Shown: positions 4,424 to 26,995, counted from the first letter of the stretch. The stretch is DNA of 64,000 nt from Candidatus Heimdallarchaeota archaeon (GCA_019057815.1 JAHLWR010000002.1:128001-192000); one strand, 5' to 3'. Program-made: numbers and translations. The notes: a model not told the origin generated them from the sequence alone.

Positions 4424-6031
4424 TTATTCTTCTTTTGCACTCAGTTGCTCACGTAATTTTTGATAGAACAGCTCATCTTCATCACCTATTGGCGAAAGTC
4501 CACCTTCTGTTACAACCCCTGTTCGTTCCACTTCTTGGTATTGTTTTTCTGCATCTAGCACAGGTTCAATAGCTGATTCTAATCTTGATGAAAGTCTCTC
4601 TTGTATGAAACCTATTAACACAGTAAAGAGAAGTATGAACACTACAATTGGAATAAGTAGCAACACTACGCCTTCAGGTTCATACATTTCTAAGGAATTG
4701 TATATTGAGGCCGGATAGCGCAGTACAAAGAGTAGTACATTTGGATTCAAAATTGCATATAATCCAGCAATCATTATCCCTACTCTAAACACTACAGAAA
4801 ATAACACATAGACAATCGTCATTAGCGGAGATATCGCCACTGAAGCTCCTACTAGCTTGTCATCTATTCTTGAATCACTTGCTACTAGACCATCATGATA
4901 TCTTTGGAGTCTACTCGTGAGCTTGTCTTTTTGTCCTCCAGGTTTTGCGAAAAGCGAATCTGATGCTTTGTCAATCATGAGAGCTACACCTGCAAAACCA
5001 AATTTTCTTGATACAGAGCTCCCTGTACTTGTGATTGATCTAGAGGCTTGTTTTTCATCAGAATCTTTGCCTTCAACTTCTTCAGCTACTTCAGGTGTTA
5101 ACTTTGCTGAATCAGTAGACACTATGCCTAGCCTGAAATCTTTCAACCTATCTAAAGCCCGTAACACACGCTGGTGCCTGTTCTGTGTGGGGTTGAGAAT
5201 CTTTGAAATATACGATATTTGGAGTGAGATTTCCAAAAACATATACGAAGCTAAAGCCACCATAACAACATTTGAACTAAACATATCTCCGATATTACTG
5301 GAAGGAGTGAAGGAAAATACATCTGGAGAATCTTGCCTAAAGAGGAGTTGAACACTGCTATAAAAAACAATAAATTGTGACAGAACAAATGCTGTAGCAG
5401 CTGAACGCATATCAGCACGGAAGATAAAAGCAAGAATAGCTATTCCTAAGAGAATAATAGCAAACCAAAGAAGAGATGCACGGTTAATAGCTTTCAATGT
5501 TTCTCCTTCCAAACTAAAAATGCTACTGAAGTATTTTCCAAAGGGAGAAAAGAGAAAATCTGGAACTGTAGCGCTAGAAGGAACAGCAAACAGATCATCA
5601 AGCCCTAAATTACTAATCGCATTTTGCATCGCAACAGGAACATCAACATTATTGAAAAGATCAGCACTGAGAAAGGCTCTGACAGTATTTAATATAGCCA
5701 CTGCATCTTGAGGAGAACCAGGTGGAGCATTAGCTGCATTAACAATAGGTATCAATACAAGGAAGGGGAGAGTAAAGAGAACGATAACTATAAGCTCGAT
5801 GAAAATAAAAATCAGTTTGAGAGTATCAAGAAGATGACCTTCAGGGAATTTAGCAGGATTTTCAAAATCAATGAGATCAAAGAGCGTTATTGATAACCAT
5901 ACAATAGCTCCAACAGCTATAAGGCGACCAATGACGTTGGTTGCCACATTTTGTATACGAGCACCACGTAGACGTCGCTGGACACCGCGGATACCGAGGT
6001 CAATGAAACCAGAATCTGAAAGAGAGTCCAT
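4424..6031 (-). CDS. Multi-pass membrane protein of unknown function (last gene of MoxR cluster 1)
   Basis: 535-aa ORF with several hydrophobic helices, a large polar loop and an acidic C-terminus. Starts 7 nt after the DUF58 stop. Confidence 0.8.
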   Translation of the reverse strand: MDSLSDSGFIDLGIRGVQRRLRGARIQNVATNVIGRLIAVGAIVWLSITLFDLIDFENPAKFPEGHLLDTLKLIFIFIELIVIVLFTLPFLVLIPIVNAANAPPGSPQDAVAILNTVRAFLSADLFNNVDVPVAMQNAISNLGLDDLFAVPSSATVPDFLFSPFGKYFSSIFSLEGETLKAINRASLLWFAIILLGIAILAFIFRADMRSAATAFVLSQFIVFYSSVQLLFRQDSPDVFSFTPSSNIGDMFSSNVVMVALASYMFLEISLQISYISKILNPTQNRHQRVLRALDRLKDFRLGIVSTDSAKLTPEVAEEVEGKDSDEKQASRSITSTGSSVSRKFGFAGVALMIDKASDSLFAKPGGQKDKLTSRLQRYHDGLVASDSRIDDKLVGASVAISPLMTIVYVLFSVVFRVGIMIAGLYAILNPNVLLFVLRYPASIYNSLEMYEPEGVVLLLIPIVVFILLFTVLIGFIQERLSSRLESAIEPVLDAEKQYQEVERTGVVTEGGLSPIGDEDELFYQKLREQLSAKEE

Positions 6032-6038
6032 ACCATAA

Positions 6039-7481
6039 TCACCCTTGACGTTGCATTCGATTGAATTGAGCTAAAACTGTTGGCATAAAATCATCAGGAC
6101 CAACAGAAACGGAAGTTGCATCAAAGCCACGGAGAGCTTTAAACATAATTTGGCGCTCACCAAGCTGTTTTTCAACAAGTGCATGACCAATCATCTGCTC
6201 AACAGGAGAAAGCTGCTGAGAAACGATTTCAAACCAAGGACCGAAGGGAGAGACAACAGTAATGTTATGTTTACGAGCACGAGCACGACGAACAGCCGGA
6301 ATAATCTTTTGAGGATGCGATTCAAGGTCAGAAATTACAATTAAGTAAGCAGAACGCTTAACACGTTGAAGAATAAAGTCAACAGCATTCTCAAGATCAC
6401 CTTCACCCTCAGGTTTAGCATGAGCTAAAGCTTCAAGAAATTGGAAAAGTTGTGCTCGGACACCGGTAAGCTCAATAAAAGCACGAACCTTGGAATCATA
6501 AATACATAAAGCAACAAGATCTTTTTTCTCAAAAGCAAGATGGATAAAAAGAACAGCACTACGAATGGCATACTCAAGTTTAGTATTTCGAGGAAGACCA
6601 GCACCCATACTAGCAGAAGAATCAAGAATGATAACGACTCGAATGTTTTGCTCAGCTTCATACTCACGAACCATCATTTTCTGAGTACGACTATAAGCTT
6701 TCCAATCTATAAACTTGAATGCGTCACCAGTTTGATATTCGCGGATACCAAAAAAGTCAGTACCCATACCCTTTATTTTAGTGCGGTGGAAACCAAAAAG
6801 GAGACCAAGTTGTCTCTTCTTGCCAATCATCTCCATTTTGCGAATATCCTCGTACGATGGATACACAAGTATAGACGTCTTTGTTTTTATCTCTCCTTCC
6901 GTTGCATAGAATCCCATTCTATCTCTAATTATGACTTTAGTTGGACCTATATCAAACTCTCCTCTTATTGGAATCCTTACAATATAACCAAACGTTATTT
7001 CTTCTCTTGGATTCAATTGTGTTACGATAAAGTTTTCTCCTAAAATTAGATCAAATACTTCTGGTATAGCATCATATATTTCGATTGTAGGTATTTGGTT
7101 TACTGATTTGTTTCTTGCTGTAACTTCTATGTAAACATAATCTCCAGCAAAGGCTTTTGTTTTAGCTACTCTTCTCTTTATCTCAATACTTTTCGGGTTT
7201 GCTCCTAGTCTATAAAATGGCAGTCCTAATAGTACTGAAAATATTAGCATTACTCCCGCTATTATAAAATACCAAATTAATGTTGCATCTTTCACGTAAA
7301 AGTGGACTATGTCCATAATTCCGAAACCTTGTGCTTCTGCTGTCGACCCCTCAAGTGTTATTGGTTCTGATGTAAAGGAAGCTATTATATTATTCAGTGA
7401 CAAATATCCCGCTAACGCGAAACCAATTGAAATCATTACAATTCCAGCAAAAACTAGCCATCCGCCTCTACGTGTGAACAT
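6039..7481 (-). CDS. DUF58 / vWA-like MoxR partner with N-terminal TM helices
   Basis: GTDFFGIREYQTGD..IDWKAYSR...VREYEAE DUF58 signature; MIDAS-like ILDSSAS; LIVISD. Confidence 0.9.
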   Translation of the reverse strand: MFTRRGGWLVFAGIVMISIGFALAGYLSLNNIIASFTSEPITLEGSTAEAQGFGIMDIVHFYVKDATLIWYFIIAGVMLIFSVLLGLPFYRLGANPKSIEIKRRVAKTKAFAGDYVYIEVTARNKSVNQIPTIEIYDAIPEVFDLILGENFIVTQLNPREEITFGYIVRIPIRGEFDIGPTKVIIRDRMGFYATEGEIKTKTSILVYPSYEDIRKMEMIGKKRQLGLLFGFHRTKIKGMGTDFFGIREYQTGDAFKFIDWKAYSRTQKMMVREYEAEQNIRVVIILDSSASMGAGLPRNTKLEYAIRSAVLFIHLAFEKKDLVALCIYDSKVRAFIELTGVRAQLFQFLEALAHAKPEGEGDLENAVDFILQRVKRSAYLIVISDLESHPQKIIPAVRRARARKHNITVVSPFGPWFEIVSQQLSPVEQMIGHALVEKQLGERQIMFKALRGFDATSVSVGPDDFMPTVLAQFNRMQRQG

Positions 7482-7648
7482 TCTTGTCTACACCTAATAT
7501 TTTCAATTCACTTATTCTAATTATAGTTCTTATATTTTTCCCAACTAGGAATACTTTACTGATTAACTTATGTTTTCTCCACTCTGAGAAGAGAAAGGAG
7601 AAAGTTTTGTCACTTACCTACTTACGACTTGTTTTCATCTTTTTTTCT

Positions 7649-8653
7649 CTAAACAGGCACAACAAGATTCCTTAGAATCTCATCTACAACCATTGTTCCA
7701 GTTGTTCCTTCAAGTTCTGCTTCAGGCTTCATCTGCAACCTGTGAGCTGTTGCTATTTTTGAAACTCTTTTTATATCATCGGGGATGACATAATCTCTTC
7801 CTCTCATAGATGCAACAGCTTTTCCAGCGTTGAGAAGGGCTATACTACATCGTGGACTACCACCTAGTATAAGTCTTGGGTCTGTTCTTGTTGCGACAAC
7901 AAGCTCTCTAATGTAATCTATAATATCCTCATGTACATATACTCGTCTTGCAACAGTTTCAATCATTTTTGTTATAGTCATAGGAGTAGTTACTCGTCGA
8001 ACAGTTTTGCGGATTCCTTTATGAATTAATTCAATAATCTCTTTTTCTTCATCAGGAGATGGCAATTCTACAAGAAGTTTGAACATGAAACGATCAACTT
8101 GTGCTTCTGGCAATGGGTAAGTTCCTTCTTGCTCTATTGGATTCTGTGTGGCAATAACTAAGAATGGTGGTTCAAGCTCAAATGTTGTTCCTTCGACAGT
8201 GACTTGTTTCTCCGCCATTGCTTCTAATAGCGCGGCTTGTGTTTTTGGTGGACTTCTGTTAATTTCGTCAGATAAGACGATATTACAAAATATTGGCCCT
8301 TTTCTCATTTTGAAGGTTCCAGCTTTTGGGTCATAAATTGTTGTTCCAACAACATCACTTGGTAGTAAGTCTGGTGTAAATTGTATTCTCTTAAAATCGC
8401 ACCCTAGTGTTGCTGCAAAATACTTAGCCATCACAGTTTTTGCAATTCCGGGGACTCCTTCTAATAGACAATGTCCTCCTCCTAGAAGAGCAATAAACAT
8501 ATCCTCTAGAATATCTACGTTGCCTATTATCACTTTTTCAAGTTCGCTATAGATTTCTTCCCAAACACGTTTAACATCCTTTGGTGTAACATATGTTTCT
8601 GTTTCAGCTTGTGCCTGTGCTTTTGCTGGTTTTTCTTCACTCATACTTTTCAC
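7649..8653 (-). CDS. moxR: MoxR family AAA+ ATPase
   Basis: Walker A GVPGIAKT, RIQFTPDLLPSD signature, DEINR, ATQNPIEQEGTYPLPEAQVDRF. Confidence 0.95.
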   Translation of the reverse strand: MKSMSEEKPAKAQAQAETETYVTPKDVKRVWEEIYSELEKVIIGNVDILEDMFIALLGGGHCLLEGVPGIAKTVMAKYFAATLGCDFKRIQFTPDLLPSDVVGTTIYDPKAGTFKMRKGPIFCNIVLSDEINRSPPKTQAALLEAMAEKQVTVEGTTFELEPPFLVIATQNPIEQEGTYPLPEAQVDRFMFKLLVELPSPDEEKEIIELIHKGIRKTVRRVTTPMTITKMIETVARRVYVHEDIIDYIRELVVATRTDPRLILGGSPRCSIALLNAGKAVASMRGRDYVIPDDIKRVSKIATAHRLQMKPEAELEGTTGTMVVDEILRNLVVPV

Positions 8654-8680
8654 TTTCCATTTCTCTTTTTATTTTTTACT

Positions 8681-10366
8681 CTACGATATTCTATCCATTA
8701 AATCTTTAATGAATGTCATTATAGTCAAAAATTCAGTTTCTTTCAATAAACGAGGTCTTCCCAAAAAGGCATCAATTCGTTTTAATTGAGGAAGAATATT
8801 TTTGACTTTCAAAGATGGATCTCTTTCTAAAAAGAATTCCGTTACTTCTTGTGGTGTATCAAGAGGACTACCAGATATTTTTCTAGCTCCTCTCAATAAT
8901 GCTCGATATAAGAGACTAATCGCTTCTTTGAATGCTCCTGTCTCTGTGATTCTCCGTATTTCTCTTTCAAATCTTGATTTTCCTGCTTCTCCCCTGTATT
9001 TTGTCCACAATACAGGTGTTAATCTTGTTTTCTTTGGAATAAGAGGATATGCTAATACTGCAATAAATATAGGTATAAATGGTGCGTATAAAGGAAACAT
9101 TGACATTTCAGTTATAAAGCGCATCAAAGTCATTGAATATATAGAAGCACTATAGAATTTTTGATGAACATGTCCTTCATCAAATATAATAGGGTAGGGT
9201 TCTCCTGCAGTTATGTTAAGATCCTGTGTGGCATAATCAAACAAGTTTTGACAGAATCTTAAATTGTCATTATCGTCAGTTTTTTCAATCCATTTGTTAA
9301 TAAAAATATCTGGATCGCCAATCATTATAATTTTACCATTACCTATAGGAAGAGTCATCATAGGAGCAAATTTTACATTTCCCCACTCATCTTCGTCAGG
9401 GGTTGCTGTCCCTTCTTTTGCTGCTTGAAAATCTGACTCTAACCATGCAGATTTGGAGGTATAAAATGGTAGAAATGGCAAGAATTGATCTTCTATTGAT
9501 CTGCCAAATAGAGACAAGGATACAGCCTGCATTGGCATCCAATCAGATTGATAGATTTTCACAGTCTGTGGGACACCTTGGTCAATGTATACACTATGAT
9601 TTATTTTTATACTAATAACAGTACCAAACTCCATTTGTATACCCTTGGTAATCCCATTAGTTAACGGGTTTGTCCCCTCAAACTCTTTTAAAAGTGGCTG
9701 AGCTGGATTAGTAGTATAACTTTCTGCATCCATTAATACTGAATTATTGAAACCAATACCTTTTAACATCCCTGCAATCATCGTGAAAATAAGATCTCCT
9801 CCTTCCTGTGTTGCATTTCCAAATAATTCGGATAATGAAGTTATTTTTCCTCCACTTACTGAAGCGACATCATCCCAAGTTTCTAATAAATTGAAGAGTG
9901 GTTCAAATATTTCAGAACCTGTTCCGTAATCATCAGCAATGATTAAACTTCCACCTCGTGCAAGAAACGCTATCATTGAAATAGTATCAGCTTGACTATA
10001 TTTTGTTGCTGGTCCAATGACTGTTACTACAGCTGATCTATTAAATCTATTTAGAATATTAAGTGATGACATACCATTTAATATCTCATATTTCTGTCCA
10101 TAAGCAGTTGTTTCTTGTTCTAAAAACAAGCGTACGCTAGAAAGCCCATCCCATCCTTCATTGTATATTGAGAACTTTGTCCCGAAGCTACCTAGCCCTA
10201 CCATTCCTAGAAATATAGGTACCACTATTACCATGAAGAGAAGAAACATTGCAATTGAGTACTTCGTAAAGGAAGGACGCCAACTAAGCTTTCTTCTTGA
10301 TGCTCTTTCGCTTCTTGACAACTTTCTTCTTTGTTGACTTCTTCTTTTGTTTTCCTCTTGGCTCAA
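8681..10366 (-). CDS. DUF4350-like membrane-anchored protein
   Basis: N-terminal TM, FSIYNEGWDGLS, FLARGGSLIIADD, GKIIMIGDPDIFIN, IIFDEGH, C-terminal TM and helical tail. Directly upstream of moxR. Confidence 0.82.
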   Translation of the reverse strand: MSQEENKRRSQQRRKLSRSERASRRKLSWRPSFTKYSIAMFLLFMVIVVPIFLGMVGLGSFGTKFSIYNEGWDGLSSVRLFLEQETTAYGQKYEILNGMSSLNILNRFNRSAVVTVIGPATKYSQADTISMIAFLARGGSLIIADDYGTGSEIFEPLFNLLETWDDVASVSGGKITSLSELFGNATQEGGDLIFTMIAGMLKGIGFNNSVLMDAESYTTNPAQPLLKEFEGTNPLTNGITKGIQMEFGTVISIKINHSVYIDQGVPQTVKIYQSDWMPMQAVSLSLFGRSIEDQFLPFLPFYTSKSAWLESDFQAAKEGTATPDEDEWGNVKFAPMMTLPIGNGKIIMIGDPDIFINKWIEKTDDNDNLRFCQNLFDYATQDLNITAGEPYPIIFDEGHVHQKFYSASIYSMTLMRFITEMSMFPLYAPFIPIFIAVLAYPLIPKKTRLTPVLWTKYRGEAGKSRFEREIRRITETGAFKEAISLLYRALLRGARKISGSPLDTPQEVTEFFLERDPSLKVKNILPQLKRIDAFLGRPRLLKETEFLTIMTFIKDLMDRIS

Positions 10367-10766
10367 CTACTTCTACATCCTGTTCTCTTATACCTCTGAA
10401 ACAGATATCTAATCGCTGTATAGCCTCTTGATAGTCTTCATAAGTGACTTCTCTGTCAGTATAACGAGCAATTTCAAAGGAGACCATATATTCATCCATT
10501 ACTTCTGCGGAAATGTTCGCCTCATTAGATATTTCAAAACCAAATTCACGTCCAGTTGTATTAGAAGAACGAATCATATTTAATAAATCATGAGCAATGG
10601 TTGTTAAACCTCCAAATGAAGCGATTACAGCTCCGCGATAATCTTGCCTTTGTTCGAAGATTCTAACATCTCCCATGACTGTATTAAATATTTGATCTAA
10701 TCTCTTAACTTGTTTTTTCCTTTTGAAGAAACCAAATATACCTCTGTTACTCAACTTTCTTTTCAC
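10284..10766 (-). CDS. DUF4129-like soluble protein with Lys-rich tail
   Basis: DYRGAVIASF..TGREF..FEIARYTDREVTYEDY pattern. True start may be the TTG a few codons downstream of AGGTGA. Confidence 0.72.
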   Translation of the reverse strand: MKRKLSNRGIFGFFKRKKQVKRLDQIFNTVMGDVRIFEQRQDYRGAVIASFGGLTTIAHDLLNMIRSSNTTGREFGFEISNEANISAEVMDEYMVSFEIARYTDREVTYEDYQEAIQRLDICFRGIREQDVEVVEPRGKQKKKSTKKKVVKKRKSIKKKA

Positions 10767-10772
10767 CTACAT

Positions 10773-13700
10773 TTATGTTTCAATTTCCATTTTACTAACT
10801 TCTAGTTGATCTATAGTTTTAAGGAGTGCTCTCACTCCTGCATTATAATCTTCTTCGGTTATAGGTTCATGACTATAACGCGCTTTTTCGAAATAATAAG
10901 TTATTGTAGCCATAGTTTCTTTTTGGATTTTTGCTTTTGCTGCTAAGAGAAAAGCAAATTCCATCGGTGTTTGATGTTTATATCTTGGAAGTTCGTAGAA
11001 CTCTCTACCTACACCTTCTACTACGTTCCACATTTTTATTAAACCTTCCTTATATCTTCCCTCAACTCCATCTCTTTTTATTTCTTCAATAATTTCTCTT
11101 AGGTAATCTCTTAATCTTCTTCTAAGAGTTTGTTTTTTAGCATAAGTTTGTAAAGAGTGTCTATTAATCCAGAAGAATAGAGCTATTATAACAACAGCTA
11201 AACCACCAACAACTCCACCGATGAGTGCACCGAGGTTTAGATCAGTACTACCACCAGGAGGAATAACAGGAGGAGGATTAACAACACTTAATAGCACAGG
11301 AGGTGTAGTAAGCAAATTATTGACAATATCATATGATAATAAATAGTAATTTAATGGAAAAGGATCTTCACTTGTTTCAGCTAGGGGATAAATAGAAAGA
11401 TTAAATGATGCAAAATATGTGTTTGTTGTTCCAACTTGAGTTAAATTCACAAGTATTGTCTGTCCATTATAATAAATATAAACTGTAACATTTTGTATAC
11501 CTGATCGTTCATCAGTAAGAATTATAGTAAAATTAAGAACAGTGTCGGCTTCTATAACTATGCCTGTATAATCAACAACTAAACCACCAGGGCCAATTAC
11601 AGGAGCGTCAGAGTCTATAGATGCTAGATTTCTTGTTACACTTGTGAAAGCATTGTTTGTGGGGTCTGCATTATCAGATGCAATATAGTACCAAGTGTAT
11701 TCATAATTATACTCCCCATCAAAGACATAAAACCATTGGTTAGTACCAGGAACGTTTGTCATTGTGTCATTAATATAATTTTCTTCCCAGACATCACTAC
11801 CTTCTACACTTCGATTAACATAAATTCTTACAGATGAAATATCTGTGTATATTAAACTGTCATTAACAAAAACTGTAATATTAAACCAAGGATTATCTAG
11901 TTCTGGAGATGTTAAGGTAACCGGAACTCCTTCTTCCACTGGTTCTTCATAATCCCCTATTTGATACTCATTATAGTGTGTACTATTATATAAATAAGTA
12001 ATCCATCCAAAGGTTACATCGTATTGTGCAACAGCTTGTCTTGTTCCACCAGCAGTTAAACCATAACCTGCAAAATCTTTGACCTCAATGTAATATTGTA
12101 TATAATTTTGTGCATACATCGTATTTATACTTAAAGTAGCTTCATATTGACCTCCCCCAATATCGATTAAAGTAATATTAGTCCATGTTTCTATTACACC
12201 TACACCCTCTTCATAAATTTGGTAGAACAATTTTACAAAGTTTATACCCGTTCCCACATCTGATGCAGTGACAGTAAAAGTAACATCAAAATAAGGTTCA
12301 TGTGGGACTATTATTAATGGATCTGGTGTGCGTATTTCTGCTGTTATTTGAGGTACATCATAATCTGGACCATAAATGTAAATTGTATGAGTTATTGACT
12401 CTGCATAAACCAATCCAGGAAGGACGTTTGCTGTGATTACAAGACCAGCAGGATAAGCTATTGATAGATCTAACCCACTGCTATCCAAATCACTCACAGT
12501 ATAAAGGACATAGTGAACAGCACTAGTGACTCCATCAGGGAGATTGTTTACTTCATCTCCTGCAAGAGTTATTGAAATCATCGCACCTAACGGTTTCCTA
12601 CCGAATTGATCTCTTACTGTAAGATTATATGCTTGAGCTGTCAATGAAGAATAGAAAGTATTGTTGAATTCTGTCCAATCAGCCACTGGATTATCTTGAG
12701 GATCAGTGAAAGTTAAAGTAAGATCATAATAGGTGTTAAAGGTGACGTTTGTTGAATCTACCCCTATTACATTATAACGATAAGTTACTTGGGTTTCATT
12801 CAAAGCATCTACTTGAATAGTTTTATTTTCTGTTTGAAGTGTAAAATCCGGGACATTTCTATTCAATATTATATTCCCACTTGCTTCAGTTATAAATTCC
12901 ACTAACCCTATTTCTGGAAAGGTTAAACTGAATCTTGAAAGAGGAGCTTTATTTCCAGCTTCATCTATAACAGTTATATTATAATAAATGATTTCCCCTG
13001 GAGTGTAAAAATTCCCATCAGGGTTATTATACAAATTAATTTCAATTGAGTAGATATTTATTGCATAGTGAACAGTTAAATCATCATCATTCAAAAGAGC
13101 TGCTCCAAATTCAGATGAAAGAGCCTCAAAATGGATATTTATTGTGTCTGTGATATCCGTAATGTTGCTTGTGAGATCATAAGTTTTCCGGATTTCAGCT
13201 TGTAAATCAGTTAAAAGGTCTTCTACAATATATACTCCTCCACCGCCAATTATAGTTACTCTTATTGTCTTACTAGGCTCAGCACCAGTATCTGAAGTTA
13301 AATTAGCAAAAACAGTGAAAGTAGAACCATATACAACCTCAACTGGCGTTTTTGTGTATGATAATATTCCAACTTCAAAATATGCATCAACAACTACTTG
13401 GTTGTCTGTCTTTGTAGTGTTATAATAAGCGAGGAATCTATCGTTTTCTGGGTCAACAGAATCATTATCTCTAAAGAAAGTCAACCCTAATGGCGCAAAA
13501 TTATAGAATACAGTTATGTCTACGTCTTGTACAAGTAGAGGAGCTGTTCCAGAATAAATATCGTTGTAGGGGGAAATTATACCAAAAGTACGATTACCAT
13601 TGAAATCTGTTCCACTAACCCACCACTCTACCTTAAGGGTATATTCATTGCCTTGTGTGTCTACTACTGACCCATTATCAAAATAACATTGACTAGTAAT

Positions 13701-17659: not shown

Positions 17660-17895
17660 GGATTTTCCTCATTCTACAAAATATATTGGAATAATATATA
17701 TCATACTATAATTAATCTATAACAACATATATATTCAAAAACTTTTTGTGGGACATTTTTTCTTTTTGGATTTAAATAGGGTTTACAATTATACTCTTAA
17801 ACTTGGATAAAGTTGAACAGGAATACACAGGTCTAAAAGTGGCACAGAATAACGTCAAAGAAAATTTTTGTGACCTTTATATATGGATCTACTTC

Positions 17896-17996
17896 TTTGT
17901 CTACTGAGGATGAGATGGTACATGACAACTTGTAGTGTTTGCATCATCAAATCGTGGAAGGATGTCGTGTATTCATCTGCATCATGTGAGGGCAAA
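17896..17996 (+). ncRNA. Candidate structured RNA (long imperfect hairpin) upstream of thyX
   Basis: Pairings 17896-17902/17990-17996, 17909-17912/17980-17983, 17913-17917/17974-17978 and 17918-17927/17963-17972, with several G-U pairs that only work on the + strand. More GC-rich than flanks. TTTATATA at 17876-17883. Confidence 0.5.
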
Positions 17997-18014
17997 ATAT
18001 ATTAAGAAAGGAAA

Positions 18015-18746: not shown

Positions 18747-18747
18747 A

Positions 18748-19563: not shown

Positions 19564-19567
19564 CTTT

Positions 19568-20959
19568 TTATACCCTTATAGCTTCTCTAATTATTCGTTG
19601 TGTGGGAGAGTATTTCTTCATCAAACGGTAAAGTGACAAAATGATATTATCATCATAACCCTTTACATCAACAAAGTCCCCACCAACAGTAAAGAGGATT
19701 TCTCTGACAAGTATTTCCCTTTGTTTATATTCATCTTTTACCAAACTTGGTAATACATTTCCCAGTATCTGATTATACTCCTTGTGTATAGATTGATTTT
19801 GCAACCATTCAGGTGATGACAACAGATTGAAACCCATAGTTGAAAAATTAACAAAAATTATTCGACTTGCCATGGATCTTAGAAGCTGTAATCCACGCAA
19901 TTTTTGTGTGATGTCTCCTTCTAAATCGGAAAAAATGATAGCAATAGAATGGTGTAATTGTTGGTTTTTTACAAAATTTATAGCTCTTATAAGGTTACTC
20001 TGAATACCTGTAGGCTCTAAATCGTACAAATTAAGCATTAGTTTTAACTCGTCTTTCCCAACCTGTGGAACAATATATCTTTGTACTTCTTCTTCATAGG
20101 CTATTATAGCCAAATCATGTTGTGTTCCTTGTATCAGTGATGAAAGTTCAACAACTGATGAGAGAGCATAGTCAAACTTAGGTCCAAACATATTACTACC
20201 AAGGTCTAGAAAAATAAGAAAATGGAGATTCTTCTGATCCTCAAATTCTTTGGATATTAGCTTATCTTGTCTAGCTGTTGCAAACCAATGAATATGTTTA
20301 AAATGGTCTCCTAGTTGATATTCACGTAGTGAATGAAATTCATCACCTCTCCCTTTAATTCTATGAGCAAATTCATGAATCATTTTAAGGAGGAGATCTT
20401 TCTTCGTTTTCCAGGGGATATAAGTTCTAGGCCGTTGAGGAAGAACTTTGATAGATTTAATATCCCCTAATATTCTTCGATTTATAAATATACTTTGAAA
20501 GGGGCTCAATGAGATTTCGATTGGACCAACACTTCCACTACCTCTTCTAGCCGCCAAAAGTAACCAGTGTATTTTTTTGGATTCTTTGGGTTGAATCCTT
20601 ATGTTTAAGGTTTCAGGAGTGTCTATACACGTAAAGTGGTACGAGTAACTCAGTGTGATTCGAACAAACCTTGGTTTTTCAGCAGTATTTGTTATTTCAG
20701 CAGCAATAGCTATAAGTCCCCTATTTCTAACATATTCTTTCGAAAGTTTGATTGACACATTAAATTCTACATTTCTATTCGAAAGAAAATAAATAAAAGC
20801 TGAAGAAATAATCAACCAAAAGAAGCATCCAGGGATTATAAAAAGAAAATTATCAATTGCCAAACCTAGAATCACAGAAATACTCGACAACAACAAAAAG
20901 GTCTTACCATTCTTTGTTAATTCTATGTTCGCTTTACTATTCATAGGATTTTTCCTCAT
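19568..20959 (-). CDS. DUF58 / vWA-like MoxR partner
   Basis: GDEFHSLREYQLGD..HIHWFATAR..LISKEFE; N-terminal TMs; IIFSD. Confidence 0.88.
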   Translation of the reverse strand: MRKNPMNSKANIELTKNGKTFLLLSSISVILGLAIDNFLFIIPGCFFWLIISSAFIYFLSNRNVEFNVSIKLSKEYVRNRGLIAIAAEITNTAEKPRFVRITLSYSYHFTCIDTPETLNIRIQPKESKKIHWLLLAARRGSGSVGPIEISLSPFQSIFINRRILGDIKSIKVLPQRPRTYIPWKTKKDLLLKMIHEFAHRIKGRGDEFHSLREYQLGDHFKHIHWFATARQDKLISKEFEDQKNLHFLIFLDLGSNMFGPKFDYALSSVVELSSLIQGTQHDLAIIAYEEEVQRYIVPQVGKDELKLMLNLYDLEPTGIQSNLIRAINFVKNQQLHHSIAIIFSDLEGDITQKLRGLQLLRSMASRIIFVNFSTMGFNLLSSPEWLQNQSIHKEYNQILGNVLPSLVKDEYKQREILVREILFTVGGDFVDVKGYDDNIILSLYRLMKKYSPTQRIIREAIRV

Positions 20960-20964
20960 TCATA

Positions 20965-21909
20965 TTAGATAACAACATGTACTTCTGAAAGTATGTTCTC
21001 AATTATTTCTGAGACCCTTATTTGCTCAATTTCAGCTTCAGGAGAGAGTATGAGTCTATGATTCATAACTGGAAAGAAAATTGATTTTATATCATCTGGT
21101 TCTATGTAATCTCTACCTCTTATTGCTGCTATTGCTCTACTTAGAGTCATGAGAGCTATAGAGCCACGAGGGCTAGATCCTAACGAAAGAGAGGGTATCG
21201 AACGTGTTGCCACTACTAAATTTGATATGTATTCCATTATTTGATCGCTAACTACAACATCTTTTTCTATTTCGTGTTTTAGTTTGCTAATTGTATTTTG
21301 ATCAGTCACTTGCTCAATATCAGCAAACATCTTCACTTTCTTCATTTTTAGCATAGCAATTTCCCCTTCCAAATCTGGTGGGTAAACTGGAATTTTTACT
21401 AAGAAACGATCAATTTGAGCTTCAGGGAGCGGATATACACCTGTTAATTCAATAGGGTTTTGAGTTGCAATAACTATAAAGGGTTCAGGAAGTTTGTGTG
21501 TTTCTTGCCCAACTGACACTTGTCGTTCTTGCATCGCTTCTAATAATGCGGATTGTGTCTTTGGAGGGCTACGATTTATTTCATCAGCAAGAAGAATATT
21601 TGTAAATACAGGTCCTTTAAAGAAGCTAAATGAACTTGTTTCTCTTTCAAAAATAAGCCCTCCTGAGATATCAGTAGGCATCATATCACTTGTGAATTGT
21701 ATTCGTGTAAAATCCATCTTCATAGTTTCTGCTAGTGTACTAGCCATTAGCGTTTTAGCTATCCCAGGAACACCTTCAAGCAGACAATGCCCGCCAGCTA
21801 ACATTGTAGCAAACATTAACTCAATGACATTTTCATTCTGCACTATACGTTTTCGCATTTCACCCATAATATTCTCAAAAATATCCTTTGCTTCATTTAC
21901 TTTAGTCAT
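20965..21909 (-). CDS. moxR: MoxR family AAA+ ATPase (second paralog)
   Basis: GVPGIAKT, RIQFTSDMMPTD, LADEINRSPPKTQSALLEAMQE, ATQNPIE..YPLPEAQIDRF. Confidence 0.95.
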   Translation of the reverse strand: MTKVNEAKDIFENIMGEMRKRIVQNENVIELMFATMLAGGHCLLEGVPGIAKTLMASTLAETMKMDFTRIQFTSDMMPTDISGGLIFERETSSFSFFKGPVFTNILLADEINRSPPKTQSALLEAMQERQVSVGQETHKLPEPFIVIATQNPIELTGVYPLPEAQIDRFLVKIPVYPPDLEGEIAMLKMKKVKMFADIEQVTDQNTISKLKHEIEKDVVVSDQIMEYISNLVVATRSIPSLSLGSSPRGSIALMTLSRAIAAIRGRDYIEPDDIKSIFFPVMNHRLILSPEAEIEQIRVSEIIENILSEVHVVI

Positions 21910-23187
21910 TTACATCAACCTTTTCCTTTTCTGAATCTCTTCCAATTTTGAAAACAGATAGATGAATGTATCATAATCTATCTTTCTAATAATCATTTCT
22001 TCAAACAGTTCTTTCTCCTCTTTAGTTAATAATAATGGTTTAATATAACTTAGCTTTTGCTGAAGATATAAGTTAAAAGCCTGGGGATGTAGTTCGTATT
22101 GAAAATATAAAGAAAAAAGAATCTTCTCTTCAACAGTAGGTTTAACAACTTGTCCAAATGTATCATATAATTCTCGTCCCCTGCTCCAGATTTTATTGGA
22201 CAAAAAATTACGGTATGATTCTGTTGGTTTAAATAATTTCTGTATCCTTGGAGCAAAATAATACAATATTAAAAGTAGGAGAACAACAATAAATATTAGT
22301 AATTGTGATTTTGATAGCAAGACTAAATTTCCATAAGATTGGTTTATTATTCCTTCTGTAGATCTTAAAGGCCACTTTTTGTGGCTCTCCTCAAAACATA
22401 CTAAGCTTGGTTTTTCTGGTGATAAAATACTTAAATAATATCTGATGAGATCAATATTACCATAAAATTTCGTATAAAGATCATTGACCAAGAAGCTTGA
22501 AGAAGTTATAGCTATTATTATTCCTCTTCCTCTTCTTATCACAGTACCAATTTTGTGGAGTTGTGTTCTTTCCATTAAAACTGACCAAATTCCATCATTA
22601 TTAGAGTCTATAAACGTGGTTCCTGCTGTAACTATATTCCCAATTTCTCTTTGATTTCTATCACTAGCTATTTCTAGAATAGCTTTTGGCTTAACAAAGC
22701 AGAGAGTATCATTAATCTCTGTAGAATTTACAAGTATGATTTCAGGTGATTTGTAATAGTGAACTGTCTCAAAAAGACTTAATCCGGAATAAATTATACC
22801 AAAATACGCAGCTAAACCTGCAACTACTCCATCTCCCCCAAGTAGAACAAGAGTACCACCTCTCAAGACAAAAGAATCAATAATTGCTCTCTCTGGATTA
22901 CGATAAGTCTTTGTACCACCCGCTATCACTAAAGTTGAAGTAGAGTTAAGGTCCATAATAGGATCTGTTGATAACAGGGTTCTCGAAATATTATAACCAT
23001 CATGAAATAACAATGCATCAACATAAGACATACCGTCAGGACCTCTATTTTCGATCGAATATGGGGGAGGAGAACTTGCAAAGTTTATACTTAAAGGGAG
23101 AAGAATAACCACAAATAGAATTATTGTTTGAATTAGTACTTTGAACAGAGGAAAATTTTGAGCACTATAAAGATTTTTCAGTTTCAT
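21910..23187 (-). CDS. DUF4350-like membrane-anchored protein (second paralog)
   Basis: YSIENRGPDGMS, FVLRGGTLVLLG, GRGIIIAITSSSFLVN, CFEESH, flanking TMs. Abuts moxR. Confidence 0.8.
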   Translation of the reverse strand: MKLKNLYSAQNFPLFKVLIQTIILFVVILLPLSINFASSPPPYSIENRGPDGMSYVDALLFHDGYNISRTLLSTDPIMDLNSTSTLVIAGGTKTYRNPERAIIDSFVLRGGTLVLLGGDGVVAGLAAYFGIIYSGLSLFETVHYYKSPEIILVNSTEINDTLCFVKPKAILEIASDRNQREIGNIVTAGTTFIDSNNDGIWSVLMERTQLHKIGTVIRRGRGIIIAITSSSFLVNDLYTKFYGNIDLIRYYLSILSPEKPSLVCFEESHKKWPLRSTEGIINQSYGNLVLLSKSQLLIFIVVLLLLILYYFAPRIQKLFKPTESYRNFLSNKIWSRGRELYDTFGQVVKPTVEEKILFSLYFQYELHPQAFNLYLQQKLSYIKPLLLTKEEKELFEEMIIRKIDYDTFIYLFSKLEEIQKRKRLM

Positions 23188-23189
23188 TG

Positions 23190-23957
23190 TTAGCTATCCT
23201 TTAGTGATTTTTCATAAATTTGTATTTCATATCTTGATTTACTAAGTGCTTGCATGGTTAGAAGTTTTTCAATGAATAGTATCAAATCTTCATGTTTCAT
23301 CTCAGCGAGCTGATATCTTGCAGAATAGAAGAGACTGATTATTACATCAATATGTTCAATAATTTCTGGTAAATCAAGTGAGAGAATGAATTCTTTTGGC
23401 GTTAGAAAATTCTCTCTCTTCTTACCAATCATTTTTCGCATATTTTGATCTAGCTTGTGATATCCATAGATAATACCTTCAGCATAACTGCCTTTTTGAA
23501 GAAACTCACTAAGAATATCAATTAGAGTTTTAATATGTGTTTGAAACTTATCTCTTCGCGAATCAATAATTGTTTTTTTCACTACGGATGACGAAGAAAT
23601 CATTCGTCTATCTTCAGTTCGTTTTCTGAGGGTCAAAGCAACAGCTAAAACAAGTAAAATCACTCCTATAATTACAGGGATAATTTGCGGTGATATTAAG
23701 GGTTCTTTGTTAAACTCAACAGGTTTTTCTGGAATTTCTGGTCCTGAAGAAGGAACAGTAGGAGCAGTTGGTGTAGAAGTAGAAGAAGAGGGAGAGGTAG
23801 AAGAAGATGTAGTTTGGTCTGTACTTTGAAGAGATGTTGATTCAACATCATCTAAACTCACATAACTTTCTTGTGAGCTGTTAGCTAAAATAAAAATAAC
23901 TATACAAGCTATTATAATCCAGATTTTTGTGTTGAAAAATTTCTTAACATTGTTCAC
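23190..23957 (-). CDS. Membrane protein with Ser/Thr/Pro stalk and C-terminal DUF4129-like domain
   Basis: Signal/TM, STSLQSTDQTTSSSTSPSSSTSTPTAPTVP stalk, TM, then YAEGIIYGY..LTPKEF..LFYSARY. Confidence 0.78.
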   Translation of the reverse strand: MNNVKKFFNTKIWIIIACIVIFILANSSQESYVSLDDVESTSLQSTDQTTSSSTSPSSSTSTPTAPTVPSSGPEIPEKPVEFNKEPLISPQIIPVIIGVILLVLAVALTLRKRTEDRRMISSSSVVKKTIIDSRRDKFQTHIKTLIDILSEFLQKGSYAEGIIYGYHKLDQNMRKMIGKKRENFLTPKEFILSLDLPEIIEHIDVIISLFYSARYQLAEMKHEDLILFIEKLLTMQALSKSRYEIQIYEKSLKDS

Positions 23958-24918
23958 CCTTTATCTCACCTCTGTTCACTTCTTCAATTATTGATTCACT
24001 TTGTTGAATAAAAGCATACACTTTACATAGACTCCACATTCCTGATACACATATTTGGAGTTTGTGCGATGCGGTTTTATAACCTAGATAAGAACACCTT
24101 TGTTCCTCAAAATAAGGACAAACGTTAGTTTGTCTTATCTTTATCATTGCTTCAAGCTTTCTATTTAGATATATCATAGAAAATGCTTTTGTCTTTTTAG
24201 TTGCTTCATAATTTGAACCACTACGATCAAAAATAGTAACGACTGAAACTGGTGTTTCAGGAAGAATTTCAGGAGAATAAACAACTTTGGAACCTTTCTT
24301 TGGAAATATAAGATAAGAAAGTTTTCTACCAAGTATTGTACCTAGATAACCGCCAACAGCGCTGAAAATAAGAAAACTCGCCGTAAACATGAAAATAAAG
24401 CTGAAGAAAAGAAAATTAGGCAAAATTGAGGCTATTAGGTCTATATTTGAAGTTGTAAATAAGAAGATTTGTGATATATATAATAGAACAACGAAGAGAA
24501 AAGAAAGTAGTGAACTAATTAAAACTAAATCTATAGCATCTTTTTCCCATACAATTCCAGTTACCAAACCAGCAATGAAAAACGGAATTAAGGTATTAAT
24601 AATAATTCCATTAATAAATTCCATTATATTTTGCGCTTCGAATGTTATAGAGAAAGGCAAGAATAAGATTTCATCTGGTGACCAAACAAGATTTTCTATT
24701 ACATAGTTATTTTGAAGGGAAAAAAAGAATATTGAAAAGAATATTGAAATACCATAACTAAGGGAGAGATAAAATGAACCCCTCAATATAAGATTCGTAA
24801 AGTACTCTTTCCTACCACGTTTACCTCTATGAGGGAATAATACTTTAAGAAACACTTCCTTCATTGGTTTGTTGGATGGATGTGTTTTAGCACTTCTAGA
24901 ATTTTTGTGATTACTCAT
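23944..24918 (-). CDS. Multi-pass membrane protein with C-terminal Cys4 motif
   Basis: Start placed at ATG 24918, which overlaps the upstream TGA (ATGA) behind GAGGGGA. About 4 TMs; tail CPYFEEQRC..IC..WSLC. Confidence 0.75.
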   Translation of the reverse strand: MSNHKNSRSAKTHPSNKPMKEVFLKVLFPHRGKRGRKEYFTNLILRGSFYLSLSYGISIFFSIFFFSLQNNYVIENLVWSPDEILFLPFSITFEAQNIMEFINGIIINTLIPFFIAGLVTGIVWEKDAIDLVLISSLLSFLFVVLLYISQIFLFTTSNIDLIASILPNFLFFSFIFMFTASFLIFSAVGGYLGTILGRKLSYLIFPKKGSKVVYSPEILPETPVSVVTIFDRSGSNYEATKKTKAFSMIYLNRKLEAMIKIRQTNVCPYFEEQRCSYLGYKTASHKLQICVSGMWSLCKVYAFIQQSESIIEEVNRGEIKGEQC

Positions 24919-26609
24919 TTTATCCCCTCGCTCAAAATTAGTTTTGACCCAGAAATAACTTTTATAAGATAAGCAATACTTACAAAGAAAATCACCATCA
25001 CACAAATCAGGCTAGTAAAGCCATATAGAAAACGAAAAGAGAAGATCAGTACTAATGCGAAAACACCCATATATAGTGAGGATACAATAAGAGAAAGTAC
25101 AACAATTGACGTGACAATTATTGAACTTAACATTGATTGGACTCTATTTTTAGCAGAAAAAAACCACACAAATGTGATTAGAAGAGCTAATAAAATTGCT
25201 ACAATAAAGACTACATATCCAAGAAAAGAAACGGAACTTTGTATATCCATAAAGACAAATAACAAACTTATCAAAATCCCTACAATAATAACTCTAGTAA
25301 AACCGACTGAAAAGCTCACATAAAGCGGTGGAAACGATGAATTCATTTTGTCATATAATGTTGTTACTTCTCTACCACAAGACCAACAATTTCTTGCAAA
25401 AGCAGGAACTAGTTGATTACAATTATTACATTGCAGTTTTGGGAAGAACCAACATAAATCACAGTATTCGCTATTATAATTTCTTGTAAAACAGTTTGAA
25501 CATAAAAACTCCTTTTCAGATTCTTTATACAAGTATGGGTACTTTGGTTTTGATTTTAACACTTTTGCAAGTTTTCCACTTTTATCTCTAAGGACTGGGC
25601 ATTCAGATGACATATGCTCTGTGAAACAAAACAAACAGTATTTTGGAATTTTTATTAACAATATTAGTGCAAAAAAAATGTATAGAACATATGAGCTGTA
25701 ATTCATAATAGATAGTGCAGTTAAATTCTCATTAACTACTGAATAATAATTTACTAAACCATGAAAACCGGTACCTAAAAAAAGGAAAACACTAAAAATG
25801 AGAATCCTTACTTTTTTCGGGTAACTTCTGCCTATGAAAATTATTCCAATCCCTAGTGCAACAATCATTGAAGAAACACTATGAAGAGGATAGATTGTCC
25901 TACCAAAAAGTAAAGAGCTGATCACAAAGTTTGTAGAAAGAGTTGAATAAGACAAAAATTGTTCTATTAAGTCGAACCATGCACCAAAAAAACCACCAAG
26001 AAAGACAGCCATTCTTAGAGAGGGTACTAAACGAGTCTCATAGTTAAATTCTTCATGGGAAAGACGAGCATAATTTCCTAATAACATTACTACCGGAAAA
26101 ATTTTTGCTATCTCTTCTATAAGAGGGATTACAATAGCGTAAAACACATGTTGTATCTTTTGAGGAGTTAAAGGGGATATGTTCATCTGGTTAAGTACAG
26201 AATTTATTACAATAAAAAGGGAAAAAGCCTTATTTTCTATAACAACAGAAAAATAAGCAGTTAAGATACCAAGTATCATTAACAGGGGAAATATCAATTT
26301 AATTATTGACGACTCTGTTTTAGTAATTGAGATACTAAAAACTAGAAATAGTGTGATTACCCAGAATAGAAATCCTAGTATGAGAAATGAGACAACATAG
26401 ACTGGGAAATAAGGGGTATTAACGACATTGTAAGATATGTTGAGAAGAAGGATTATAATGGCAACTAGAATACCAACTATAATTGCTTTAATTAGGGTTG
26501 AAAAGGAAATTATTTTTCCATTAAGTTGAAAATTAAACAATGATTCATCAGTAGACCTATCCCTAAACAACTCAGCTTTTGATACAGGTTTATCACTATT
26601 TTCAATCAT
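24915..26609 (-). CDS. PrsW-family intramembrane glutamic protease fused to zinc ribbons and extra TMs
   Basis: PLIEEIAK (EExxK), FDLIEQ, PLHS and FHGLVN (HxxxN) motifs; CxxC pairs CLFC, CSNC, CDLC, CNNC, CWSC. Confidence 0.82.
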   Translation of the reverse strand: MIENSDKPVSKAELFRDRSTDESLFNFQLNGKIISFSTLIKAIIVGILVAIIILLLNISYNVVNTPYFPVYVVSFLILGFLFWVITLFLVFSISITKTESSIIKLIFPLLMILGILTAYFSVVIENKAFSLFIVINSVLNQMNISPLTPQKIQHVFYAIVIPLIEEIAKIFPVVMLLGNYARLSHEEFNYETRLVPSLRMAVFLGGFFGAWFDLIEQFLSYSTLSTNFVISSLLFGRTIYPLHSVSSMIVALGIGIIFIGRSYPKKVRILIFSVFLFLGTGFHGLVNYYSVVNENLTALSIMNYSSYVLYIFFALILLIKIPKYCLFCFTEHMSSECPVLRDKSGKLAKVLKSKPKYPYLYKESEKEFLCSNCFTRNYNSEYCDLCWFFPKLQCNNCNQLVPAFARNCWSCGREVTTLYDKMNSSFPPLYVSFSVGFTRVIIVGILISLLFVFMDIQSSVSFLGYVVFIVAILLALLITFVWFFSAKNRVQSMLSSIIVTSIVVLSLIVSSLYMGVFALVLIFSFRFLYGFTSLICVMVIFFVSIAYLIKVISGSKLILSEGIK

Positions 26610-26746
26610 AACATATTTTCACTTTACAGAGTATTGCTATTCATAAAACTATCAAACAGTAAAGATATCTTATATTGAACACTTAAAACTCTTTTCAAGA
26701 ATAAAGAAATTGATTTATATGAGAGAAAAAAAAAGAAAATTTCTTT

Positions 26747-26995
26747 TTATTCAATAAGAGCAGCTTCAGTTATATCTCCAATTGCTTTTATTAGGAAGAA
26801 TAAGAATATGACACAAGAACCTACTAGAATAGCTATTTGTGGTCCTCTTCCAAAAGCTAAAGGGTATCCGACACTACCAAAATAAAGCGTATCTGAACTC
26901 CCAATAATAATTGAAAATAGTATACCTATTAATGAAGCTGTAAGTGGGATAAACCAAAATAAAGTTACTTTCAATGCTTGAAGAACGCCTACCAT
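26747..26995 (-). CDS. Small two-TM membrane protein
   Basis: 82 aa, two hydrophobic helices, strong GGAGG RBS upstream of ATG. Confidence 0.7.
   Translation of the reverse strand: MVGVLQALKVTLFWFIPLTASLIGILFSIIIGSSDTLYFGSVGYPLAFGRGPQIAILVGSCVIFLFFLIKAIGDITEAALIE

Follow-up and report, generated by a model that had tools for sequence, protein, structure and literature searches.

A 64,000-nucleotide stretch of DNA from a Candidatus Heimdallarchaeota archaeon (GCA_019057815.1 JAHLWR010000002.1:128001-192000; the whole stretch is referred to here as the window) contains two neighboring, co-oriented gene clusters, each of which encodes a MoxR-type AAA+ ATPase, a DUF58 protein with a vWA (von Willebrand factor A) domain, and membrane proteins carrying DUF4350 and DUF4129 domains. 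The analysis establishes which genes are present, their homologies, predicted topology and conservation, and how old the split between the clusters is. Sequence comparison identifies cluster 1 as the version, in the Heimdallarchaeaceae, of an Asgard operon that is vertically inherited and mostly single-copy, and cluster 2 as an old paralogue headed by an intact PrsW-type protease. We think it probable that these are two separate operons, each specifying a membrane-embedded MoxR/DUF58 machine with DUF4350 and DUF4129 bitopic partners that would remodel the tails of membrane proteins, with proteolysis in the case of cluster 2.

Gene content and predicted topology of the two clusters

All 15 of the 15 genes lie on the minus strand, seven in cluster 1 (window positions 4424-17659, numbered here from 17659 downward) and eight in cluster 2 (18748-26995, numbered from 26995 downward), at the positions that a preliminary description, made by a model from the sequence alone, had given for them. 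In both, the core order is DUF4129, DUF4350, MoxR, DUF58/vWA, and a polytopic membrane protein. As that description also had it, thyX is the sole gene between the clusters; it is a member of neither, and because it is convergent with cluster 2 and divergent from cluster 1, its orientation indicates two separate transcription units. The features are as follows, with lengths in amino acids (aa) or nucleotides (nt), TM standing for transmembrane, and scores in bits against Pfam.

Cluster 1, gene 1, 14480..17659, minus strand: membrane protein of 1059 aa, basic at its N-terminus, with about 4-5 TM helices; its large acidic domain contains a catalytically dead transglutaminase-like core
Cluster 1, gene 2, 10773..14480, minus strand: 1235-aa type-I surface protein with a signal/anchor, a 1048-aa acidic ectodomain, one TM helix, and a cytoplasmic DUF4129 tail
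Cluster 1, gene 3, 10284..10766, minus strand: 160-aa stand-alone DUF4129 protein, soluble, closely paralogous to the 1235-aa protein's tail
Cluster 1, gene 4, 8681..10366, minus strand: 561-aa DUF4350 protein (43.3 bits) with an N-terminal anchor, a 354-aa ectodomain, a C-terminal TM helix, and a 117-aa basic cytoplasmic tail
Cluster 1, gene 5, 7649..8653, minus strand: MoxR AAA+ ATPase, 334 aa (AAA_3 218 bits, AAA_lid_2 83 bits)
Cluster 1, spacer between genes 5 and 6, 7482-7648, no strand: 167 nt, AT-rich, with a short inverted repeat (TTCTC...GAGAA) and TATA-like stretches
Cluster 1, gene 6, 6039..7481, minus strand: 480-aa DUF58 protein with an N-terminal two-TM hairpin and a cytoplasmic vWA domain (DUF58 114 bits, cut-off 23.4; VWA_2 45 bits)
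Cluster 1, gene 7, 4424..6031, minus strand: 535-aa polytopic membrane protein with a conserved cytoplasmic loop
thyX, 18015-18746, plus strand: Thy1 200 bits
Cluster 2, gene 0, 26747..26995, minus strand: 82-aa two-TM protein, with AGGAGG preceding its ATG and a T-run after its stop
Cluster 2, gene 1, 24915..26609, minus strand: 564-aa PrsW-type intramembrane protease (PrsW-protease, PF13367, 44 bits, cut-off 23.5) fused to a cytoplasmic CxxC zinc-ribbon module and further TM helices
Cluster 2, gene 2, 23944..24918, minus strand: membrane protein of 324 aa with about 4 TM helices, its cytoplasmic tail conserved and rich in Cys/His, its start in an ATGA overlap with the PrsW gene
Cluster 2, gene 3, 23190..23957, minus strand: 255-aa protein with an N-terminal anchor, a 54-aa Ser/Thr-rich stalk, a TM helix, and a cytoplasmic DUF4129 domain
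Cluster 2, gene 4, 21910..23187, minus strand: 425-aa DUF4350 protein (34.8 bits), anchored, its ectodomain joined by a TM helix to a cytoplasmic tail of 106 aa
Cluster 2, gene 5, 20965..21909, minus strand: MoxR AAA+ ATPase, 314 aa (AAA_3 211 bits, AAA_lid_2 80 bits)
Cluster 2, gene 6, 19568..20959, minus strand: 463-aa DUF58 protein with a TM hairpin and a cytoplasmic vWA-like domain (DUF58 66 bits, no VWA match)
Cluster 2, gene 7, 18748..19563, minus strand: membrane protein of 271 aa with about 6 TM helices and, on the cytoplasmic side, a conserved loop; no family match

Most of the domains named in the preliminary description (MoxR, DUF58, DUF4350, DUF4129 and PrsW) are borne out by these Pfam scores, and the DUF4129 tail of the 255-aa protein by hhalign. 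Four gene families are common to both clusters and the remainder differ. The two MoxR proteins are 50% identical, with the Walker A (GVPGIAKT) and Walker B (DEINR) motifs intact in both, and in each cluster the MoxR gene is followed directly by the DUF58 gene, whose products are 23% identical. Identity between the DUF4350 proteins (26%) is confined to 109 N-terminal residues; each is anchored N-terminally, has a C-terminal TM helix, and shares its operon with both a COG0714 ATPase and a vWA protein, as is characteristic of arCOG01314-type modules. The 160-aa and 255-aa proteins are barely alike by BLASTP, and hhalign identifies all three DUF4129 domains (the 1235-aa tail, the 160-aa protein and the 255-aa tail) as homologous. 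Two further equations were tried and rejected. The terminal membrane proteins of 535 and 271 aa have no similarity by BLASTP and reach 0.3% in hhalign; hence the shared core order that had been described, including a terminal polytopic protein, stands as an order, but its last members are not related. The DUF4350 tails match DUF4129 weakly in cluster 1 (hhalign 46%) and not at all in cluster 2 (0.1%), and for this reason we do not claim them as DUF4129 domains.

In cluster 1, the 1059-aa protein matches Transglut_core at residues 461-530 with 22.4 bits, below the cut-off of 23, and lacks the Cys-His-Asp triad of TgpA-type proteins, the three positions being Ala, Phe and Gln; the triad is kept in no orthologue of the Heimdallarchaeaceae. 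It is also lost in a second Asgard family, where His alone is kept, and in a fused protein of a third, where Pro replaces Cys, such that the Cys is absent in three of the three Asgard families checked. A PDB sequence search with this protein returned nothing. The ectodomain of the 1235-aa protein, whose DUF4129 domain scores 35.8 bits in the full-length sequence and 40.7 bits with the tail alone, has no Pfam Ig match, whereas its counterparts in other families match Big_1, Big_13, CarboxypepD_reg and MG domains. The 160-aa protein falls under the Pfam cut-off for DUF4129 (16.8 bits) but aligns with the profile of the 1235-aa tail at 99.9% in hhalign (E 7.6e-37). Its AlphaFold2 (AF2) model is a five-helix bundle with a mean predicted local distance difference test (pLDDT) score of 80.6, and the motifs R..QT.[RK]E[FY] and FE.ARY are conserved in the domain. 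Three aligned counterparts from outside the order (L065:15170-15667, L069:15184-15669 and L068:4154-4582) carry an N-terminal TM helix, whereas the proteins of the Heimdallarchaeaceae and the counterpart in family f4 (L022) have a basic N-terminus without one. Structural matches to the model are led by HEPN-like helical bundles (Z about 10; Foldseek E >= 0.24); we treat these as a lead and do not assign a HEPN fold, as the match lies in the range of helical-bundle noise and the HEPN Rx4-6H motif is not conserved. The metal ion-dependent adhesion site (MIDAS) of the cluster-1 DUF58 protein, DSSAS, is intact, and all nine of the aligned close rows of cluster-1 type, which represent five families of the class, have D[AST]S[AS]S. 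The 535-aa protein has no match in Pfam or NCBIfam; its AF2 model has a pLDDT of 69.7, and Foldseek against the PDB found no match at E <= 0.001.

In cluster 2, the PrsW motifs EExxK, FxxxE, H and HxxxN are intact, with E165, E166, K169, F212, E216, H243, H283 and N287 invariant in five Heimdallarchaeaceae genera, and nine Cys of the PrsW-zinc-ribbon protein are invariant across the order. The preliminary contrast between an inactive and a proteolytic arm agrees with these data on both sides. In two other families, a second cluster-2-type paralogue (L017:4965-6707, L024:2462-4315) keeps the zinc-ribbon Cys but has lost the PrsW catalytic motifs, a loss that parallels the dead transglutaminase of cluster 1. 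The 82-aa gene lies just upstream of PrsW in more than 20 Heimdallarchaeaceae loci (35-73% identity). The gene list first drawn up for this cluster was right about PrsW, the Cys protein and the stalk-DUF4129 protein but missed this conserved head gene and misplaced the start of the 324-aa protein, which is the ATG at 24918 instead of 25005. The tail of the latter has the motif CPYF..C.YLGY.T..H..QIC....C.VYAF, and four of eight members of its family match DUF5518 weakly, below the cut-off. The 255-aa protein has no Pfam match of its own; its tail aligns with the DUF4129 tail profiles at 97.4% (E 1.5e-11) and 96.5% in hhalign, and its positional homologue in L016:7634-8500 matches DUF4129 with 29 bits. 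The MIDAS of the cluster-2 DUF58 protein is degenerate (DLGSN); the motif there reads DLGS[TN], and the site varies across the clade. Positional homologues of the 271-aa protein in other families match it weakly in the loop motif (hhalign 49%, E 1.7e-4). The idea that the 271-aa or the Cys-tail protein is a SpoIIM/RDD-type bacterial partner found no Pfam support even at E 10, ESM Atlas searches with both were uninformative, and cluster 2 encodes no Ig-like or S-layer-like surface protein.

Hydropathy, charge and N-glycosylation sequons predict an extracellular location for the ectodomains of the 1059-aa, 1235-aa and DUF4350 proteins and a cytoplasmic one for DUF4129, the DUF58 vWA domain and MoxR, which is the topology predicted earlier. 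The ectodomains are mostly acidic and have 1.4-2.4 sequons per 100 aa, with 14 sequons and 115 D+E vs 42 K+R in residues 166-1059 of the 1059-aa protein and 25 sequons in the 1235-aa protein; the tails are basic with zero sequons.

Most genes in each cluster are closely spaced. In gene order, the junctions of cluster 1 are a 1-nt overlap, a 6-nt gap, an 83-nt overlap (between genes 3 and 4, where the TTG start of gene 4 is uncertain), and gaps of 27, 167 and 7 nt; those of cluster 2 are a 137-nt gap after the small gene, the ATGA overlap, a 14-nt overlap, and gaps of 2, 0, 5 and 4 nt. The 167-nt spacer between the MoxR and DUF58 genes of cluster 1 is unusually long for this operon (in Ca. Heimdallarchaeum, L007, about 22 nt separate the two genes) and, judging from its sequence, may be an internal promoter or terminator. 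Likewise, the AGGAGG before the 82-aa gene and the T-run after it suggest that this gene may be a separate transcript. A bacterial-type promoter and terminator scan around thyX gave signals no higher than shuffled controls, and Rfam had no match over window positions 1-32000.

Distribution and age of the two operons

The closest loci are in metagenome-assembled genomes of Candidatus Heimdallarchaeota/Heimdallarchaeaceae, including Ca. Heimdallarchaeum aukensis and Ca. H. endolithica. The whole two-cluster layout recurs gene for gene in four other Heimdallarchaeaceae genera, from a gene for a tetratricopeptide repeat (TPR)-like protein through PrsW to the 271-aa gene, thyX in the identical position, the dead transglutaminase to the 535-aa gene, and a gene for an elongation factor 2 (EF-2) paralogue. 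A layout that recurs in this way, thyX and the downstream EF-2 gene included, is no product of chance. All five Heimdallarchaeaceae genera examined have the two clusters side by side, and no other family sampled does. The spacing between the two MoxR genes is 13-14 kb in most Heimdallarchaeaceae genomes, whereas in the three other families of the order the clusters are non-adjacent, lying on separate contigs or, in a 10-contig assembly, 835 kb apart on one contig.

Trees of 38 and then 50 MoxR sequences (Asgard sequences only, midpoint-rooted, without a non-Asgard outgroup) separate cluster-1 and cluster-2 clades with 99-100% support in the Shimodaira-Hasegawa-like approximate likelihood-ratio test (SH-aLRT). 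When MoxRs from eight further Asgard families are added, all those that adjoin the 535-aa family, the cluster-1 MoxR among them, fall into a single phylum-wide group that follows taxonomy, and the cluster-2 clade lies outside it. By these trees, the clusters are old paralogues, and a duplication within the Heimdallarchaeaceae is excluded. The genome has three AAA_3 MoxR genes. The third (G000:C38:67112-68116; 339 aa) belongs to another operon (L049:10113-18418) with a helix-turn-helix regulator, proteins of 729, 231 and 530 aa without a Pfam match, a short DUF58/vWA protein (316 aa) and a 625-aa CARDB-like protein; operons of this type also occur in other families of the order (L015, L020, L023, L050, L064), and their MoxRs form a clade of their own.

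The 535-aa membrane protein marks the cluster-1 type. Its family profile found 93 representatives among 1.84 billion proteins, and the named members are all Asgard (Heimdall-, Kari-, Hod-, Thor-, Hel- and Frey/Jord-archaea and 'Promethearchaeota') except for one weak Korarchaeota match. Of 301 Asgard genomes, 264 have the family, as do 85 of the 90 that are of high quality; it is usually a single copy. In eight other Asgard families, 13 of 14 sampled loci keep the order DUF4350-MoxR-DUF58-membrane protein, with DUF58 proteins 36-42% identical to the cluster-1 copy, and a small DUF4129 protein and giant proteins stand upstream of the core in five of the five loci whose upstream genes were examined; in several families the giants carry Ig-like, CarboxypepD_reg or macroglobulin-like domains. 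The synteny of accessory genes expected in relatives is borne out by the other Heimdallarchaeaceae genera. In one other family, a single 1833-aa protein (L073:97-5598) comprises a transglutaminase core (56.6 bits), Ig domains, a TM helix and DUF4129, and in light of this fusion genes 1 and 2 of cluster 1 look like a split TgpA-like protein. The cluster-1-type operon has also been rearranged several times: in L072 (G171:C17:66000-85900), from one Asgard family, the DUF58 and 535-aa-family genes are adjacent with no neighboring MoxR or DUF4350 gene, and in family f3 (L014, L019) the order is DUF58-MoxR-membrane protein.

All four families of the order have the seven-gene arrangement of cluster 2 (PrsW-like, a membrane protein of about 250 aa, DUF4129, DUF4350, MoxR, DUF58, and another membrane protein of about 250 aa), in some genomes in two copies, and it also occurs in one genome of a further family in the class. 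In a profile search at E <= 1e-8, leaving aside the genome of the window, the PrsW-zinc-ribbon family was detected in every one of the order's other genomes (13 of 13) and in one of 107 other Asgard genomes, where the lone match is on a short contig with no MoxR. This range is a lower bound, because the profile search missed a divergent PrsW (family f5) that was found by tblastn. In three genomes of other families, the cluster-1 MoxR alone was recovered at E <= 1e-60. The closest MoxR relatives outside the family are 54-59% identical and again Asgard. Homologue searches with PrsW and with the 535-aa family reached close relatives only, and a locus search with a five-sequence PrsW alignment reached Heimdallarchaeaceae alone.

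Stops in frame, or a match in two pieces, affect some orthologues (L006:10561-11349, L011:4424-4831, L025:4280-5281, L076:12466-13465), namely that of the 271-aa protein in Ca. H. aukensis, that of the 160-aa DUF4129 protein in one genome, and those of MoxR in two. These may be sequencing errors, pseudogenes or recoding.

Proposed mechanism and alternative explanations

MoxR-type AAA+ ATPases paired with vWA proteins and having known clients (CbbQ-CbbO, NorQ-NorD, RavA-ViaA, midasin) are remodeling or assembly factors in which the ATPase is a hexamer and the MIDAS of the partner binds the client. Cluster 1 shares the MIDAS with these pairs, whereas in cluster 2 it is degenerate, and the Asgard clients would be the tails of membrane proteins. 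More generally, MoxR-vWA pairs have been read as a chaperone with a metal-dependent substrate adaptor (Zhang and Aravind 2012, PMC3495828). In the mechanism that we favor, the cytoplasmic MoxR would pair with DUF58 as its membrane-tethered vWA adaptor, and the two would serve two kinds of bitopic partner, namely the DUF4350 proteins with their surface domain and the proteins with a cytoplasmic DUF4129 helical bundle. In cluster 1, the DUF58 MIDAS would bind a cytoplasmic partner, most likely the DUF4129 domain with its two conserved motifs or else the loop of the 535-aa protein, after which MoxR would spend ATP to assemble, remodel or release a surface-protein complex from inside. In the preliminary description, DUF4129 tails would couple the ectodomains to the ATPase. 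In cluster 2, the same motor-adaptor pair might present a membrane substrate to PrsW, or extract the substrate afterwards; the likeliest substrate would be the adjacent stalk-TM-DUF4129 protein of 255 aa or the 324-aa Cys-tail protein, and the outcome would be ATP-assisted or regulated membrane proteolysis. An intact PrsW where cluster 1 has a dead enzyme fits regulated membrane proteolysis.

The comparison with PrsW of Bacillus subtilis, a site-1 protease that cleaves the anti-sigma factor RsiW, bears on this last point. The Asgard protein keeps the PrsW fold and the four catalytic motifs, and a candidate single-pass substrate with a short ectodomain is encoded two genes downstream. It differs in being fused to zinc ribbons and extra TM helices and in lying inside a MoxR-DUF58 operon; moreover, we know of no sigma/anti-sigma pair in archaea.

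Several observations weigh against this mechanism. Every one of its steps is drawn from sequence and topology, and the degenerate MIDAS makes the adaptor model less convincing for cluster 2. The 535-aa, 271-aa and Cys-tail proteins are without an assigned function, and the matches to the DUF4129 model are generic HEPN-like helical bundles, within the range of noise. The membrane side of the large transglutaminase-like domain hinges on an uncertain count of TM helices, four of which would put it inside, and a cytoplasmic location was predicted for the bacterial homologues (PMC3495828). Finally, co-transcription within the clusters is suggested by gene spacing alone, and the 167-nt spacer in cluster 1 and the T-run after the 82-aa gene in cluster 2 may split the transcripts.

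The alternative that fares best, although we regard it as unlikely for the system as a whole, is membrane-proximal degradation (Zhang and Aravind 2012), in which the vWA protein recruits a substrate, MoxR unfolds it, and a linked peptidase cleaves it. The MoxR-vWA-YebA/TgpA operon of bacteria and archaea, known also from P. aeruginosa TgpA (PMC3507681), was described and so interpreted (PMC3495828), and cluster 2 has an intact membrane protease at the matching place. The likeness to that operon extends to MoxR, DUF58 and a polytopic transglutaminase-like protein, and one Asgard family has the fused transglutaminase-Ig-DUF4129 protein. Bacterial TgpA-type proteins carry a C-terminal DUF4129. 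In cluster 1, by contrast, the polytopic N-terminus is kept but the TM helix and DUF4129 are on the 1235-aa product of the next gene, and the operon adds a stand-alone DUF4129 protein, a DUF4350 protein and the 535-aa membrane protein. The cluster-1 domain has none of Cys, His and Asp, and the Cys is missing in every Asgard family checked; with its catalytic residues lost, cluster 1 cannot degrade substrates by this domain. The PrsW motifs, too, are lost in the paralogous cluster-2 subclade. For cluster 2 itself the degradation model may hold, and there it overlaps the mechanism that we favor.

A more ambitious version of our own proposal can be reached by analogy, and we consider it improbable. 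Here cluster 1 would be a machine near-universal among the Asgard archaea, those most closely related to eukaryotes, by which the cell builds or controls putative glycoprotein structures on its surface from within, its motor and MIDAS adaptor acting on the DUF4129 tails of the giant proteins via the 535-aa subunit in an integrin- or midasin-like 'inside-out' manner, and cluster 2 would add a signal path of regulated proteolysis by PrsW. The MoxR class is the prokaryotic ATPase class closest to dynein and midasin. Inactive transglutaminase-like domains also occur in ciliary proteins (PMC3495828).

The preliminary description had proposed a single apparatus, tandem-duplicated in place and specialized into structural and proteolytic arms that still cooperate. 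The adjacency and common orientation of the clusters in all five genera, the four shared gene families, and the pairing of a dead enzyme with an intact protease are what one would expect under that proposal. Yet identity is just 50% between the MoxRs and 23% between the DUF58 proteins, the terminal membrane proteins are unrelated, and thyX on the opposite strand splits the transcription units. The MoxR phylogeny, in which the cluster-1 copy groups with orthologues from eight other families to the exclusion of the cluster-2 clade, together with the separation of the clusters in other families, contradicts a local duplication; we therefore hold the proposal to be improbable.

We judge a secretion or membrane-remodeling complex (Makarova, Galperin, Koonin 2015; PMC5898192) to be just as improbable. 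These authors predicted that archaeal modules built on a GldG-like DUF4350 protein (arCOG01314) and its partners export or anchor surface or S-layer-like proteins, and they reported such operons, in which a COG0714 ATPase and a vWA protein accompany surface proteins of Ig-like type. Our clusters are alike in combining, in one operon, a doubly anchored DUF4350 protein with an extracellular flavodoxin-like domain, MoxR/COG0714, a vWA protein (DUF58), small polytopic membrane proteins and, in cluster 1, a large surface protein, and the giants upstream of cluster 1 in several Asgard families point the same way. In contrast, the published description does not include DUF4129 partners, a transglutaminase-like protein, the 535-aa family or the PrsW-zinc-ribbon head, PrsW being absent from that account altogether. 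It takes the vWA protein to be secreted, whereas here the TM hairpin and charge pattern predict a cytoplasmic one. No channel-forming or known secretion component is present in the clusters, and no datum distinguishes export from later assembly or remodeling. A mobile conflict or defense system of the MoxR-vWA ternary type is hardly credible: both MoxRs match the bpMoxR model (34 and 45 bits), but neither cluster has a beta-propeller or effector gene, PADLOC reported no system and, apart from one weak generic AAA+ match, nothing else, and the cluster-1 core, mostly single-copy and tracking taxonomy across the phylum, has a housekeeping pattern and not that of a mobile operon.

Neighboring genes and significance

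Two genes upstream of cluster 2, at 27985-28710 on the minus strand, is a CofE-like F420-0:gamma-glutamyl ligase (PF01996, E 9e-61). In another Asgard family, four loci (L070, L071, L076, L077) have homologues of it (37-39% identical) at a distance of 2-3 kb from the cluster-1-type operon; this proximity may be a relic of an old shared neighborhood, or chance. The TPR-like gene at 27107-27826, minus strand, encodes a 239-aa helical-repeat protein with weak matches and is syntenic upstream of cluster 2 within the family. The stand-alone EF-2 paralogue, at 2068-4284 on the plus strand, converges on the end of cluster 1; the family's other genera have it in synteny, at 77-79% identity.

It is informative to place the two clusters among related operons more widely. 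The Bifidobacterium PFNA cluster (pkb2-fn3-aaa-duf58-tgm; PMC8430577, PMC6803598) is a bacterial analogue, in which genes for a large surface protein rich in repeats, a MoxR-type ATPase, DUF58 and a transglutaminase-like protein are neighbors, but the Ser/Thr kinase gene of that cluster has no counterpart here, none of the 15 Asgard products having a kinase domain by Pfam, DUF4350 and DUF4129 are added here, and the lineages are unrelated. The general kind of system described here has already been predicted (PMC5898192, PMC3495828), and our finding is at the level of annotation, with nothing categorically new; the literature search returned no paper linking MoxR to Asgard archaea in this sense and no description of a PrsW-headed MoxR operon.

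Prokaryotes very commonly have MoxR-DUF58 operons in which the partners are transglutaminase-like, DUF4350 and DUF4129 proteins, and as far as we are aware none has an established function. The second, old paralogous form, headed by an intact PrsW with zinc ribbons, is a combination not found in the literature searched, and the two forms contrast in ways that can be tested: a dead enzyme versus a live protease, and an intact versus a degenerate MIDAS. Cultured Asgard strains make the cluster-1 operon amenable to transcriptomics, proteomics and cryo-tomography. That form, marked by an almost Asgard-only membrane subunit, has been kept, mostly as a single copy, in most of the Asgard genomes sampled, which suggests that it serves some basic function of the envelope in those archaea that are the nearest to eukaryotes.

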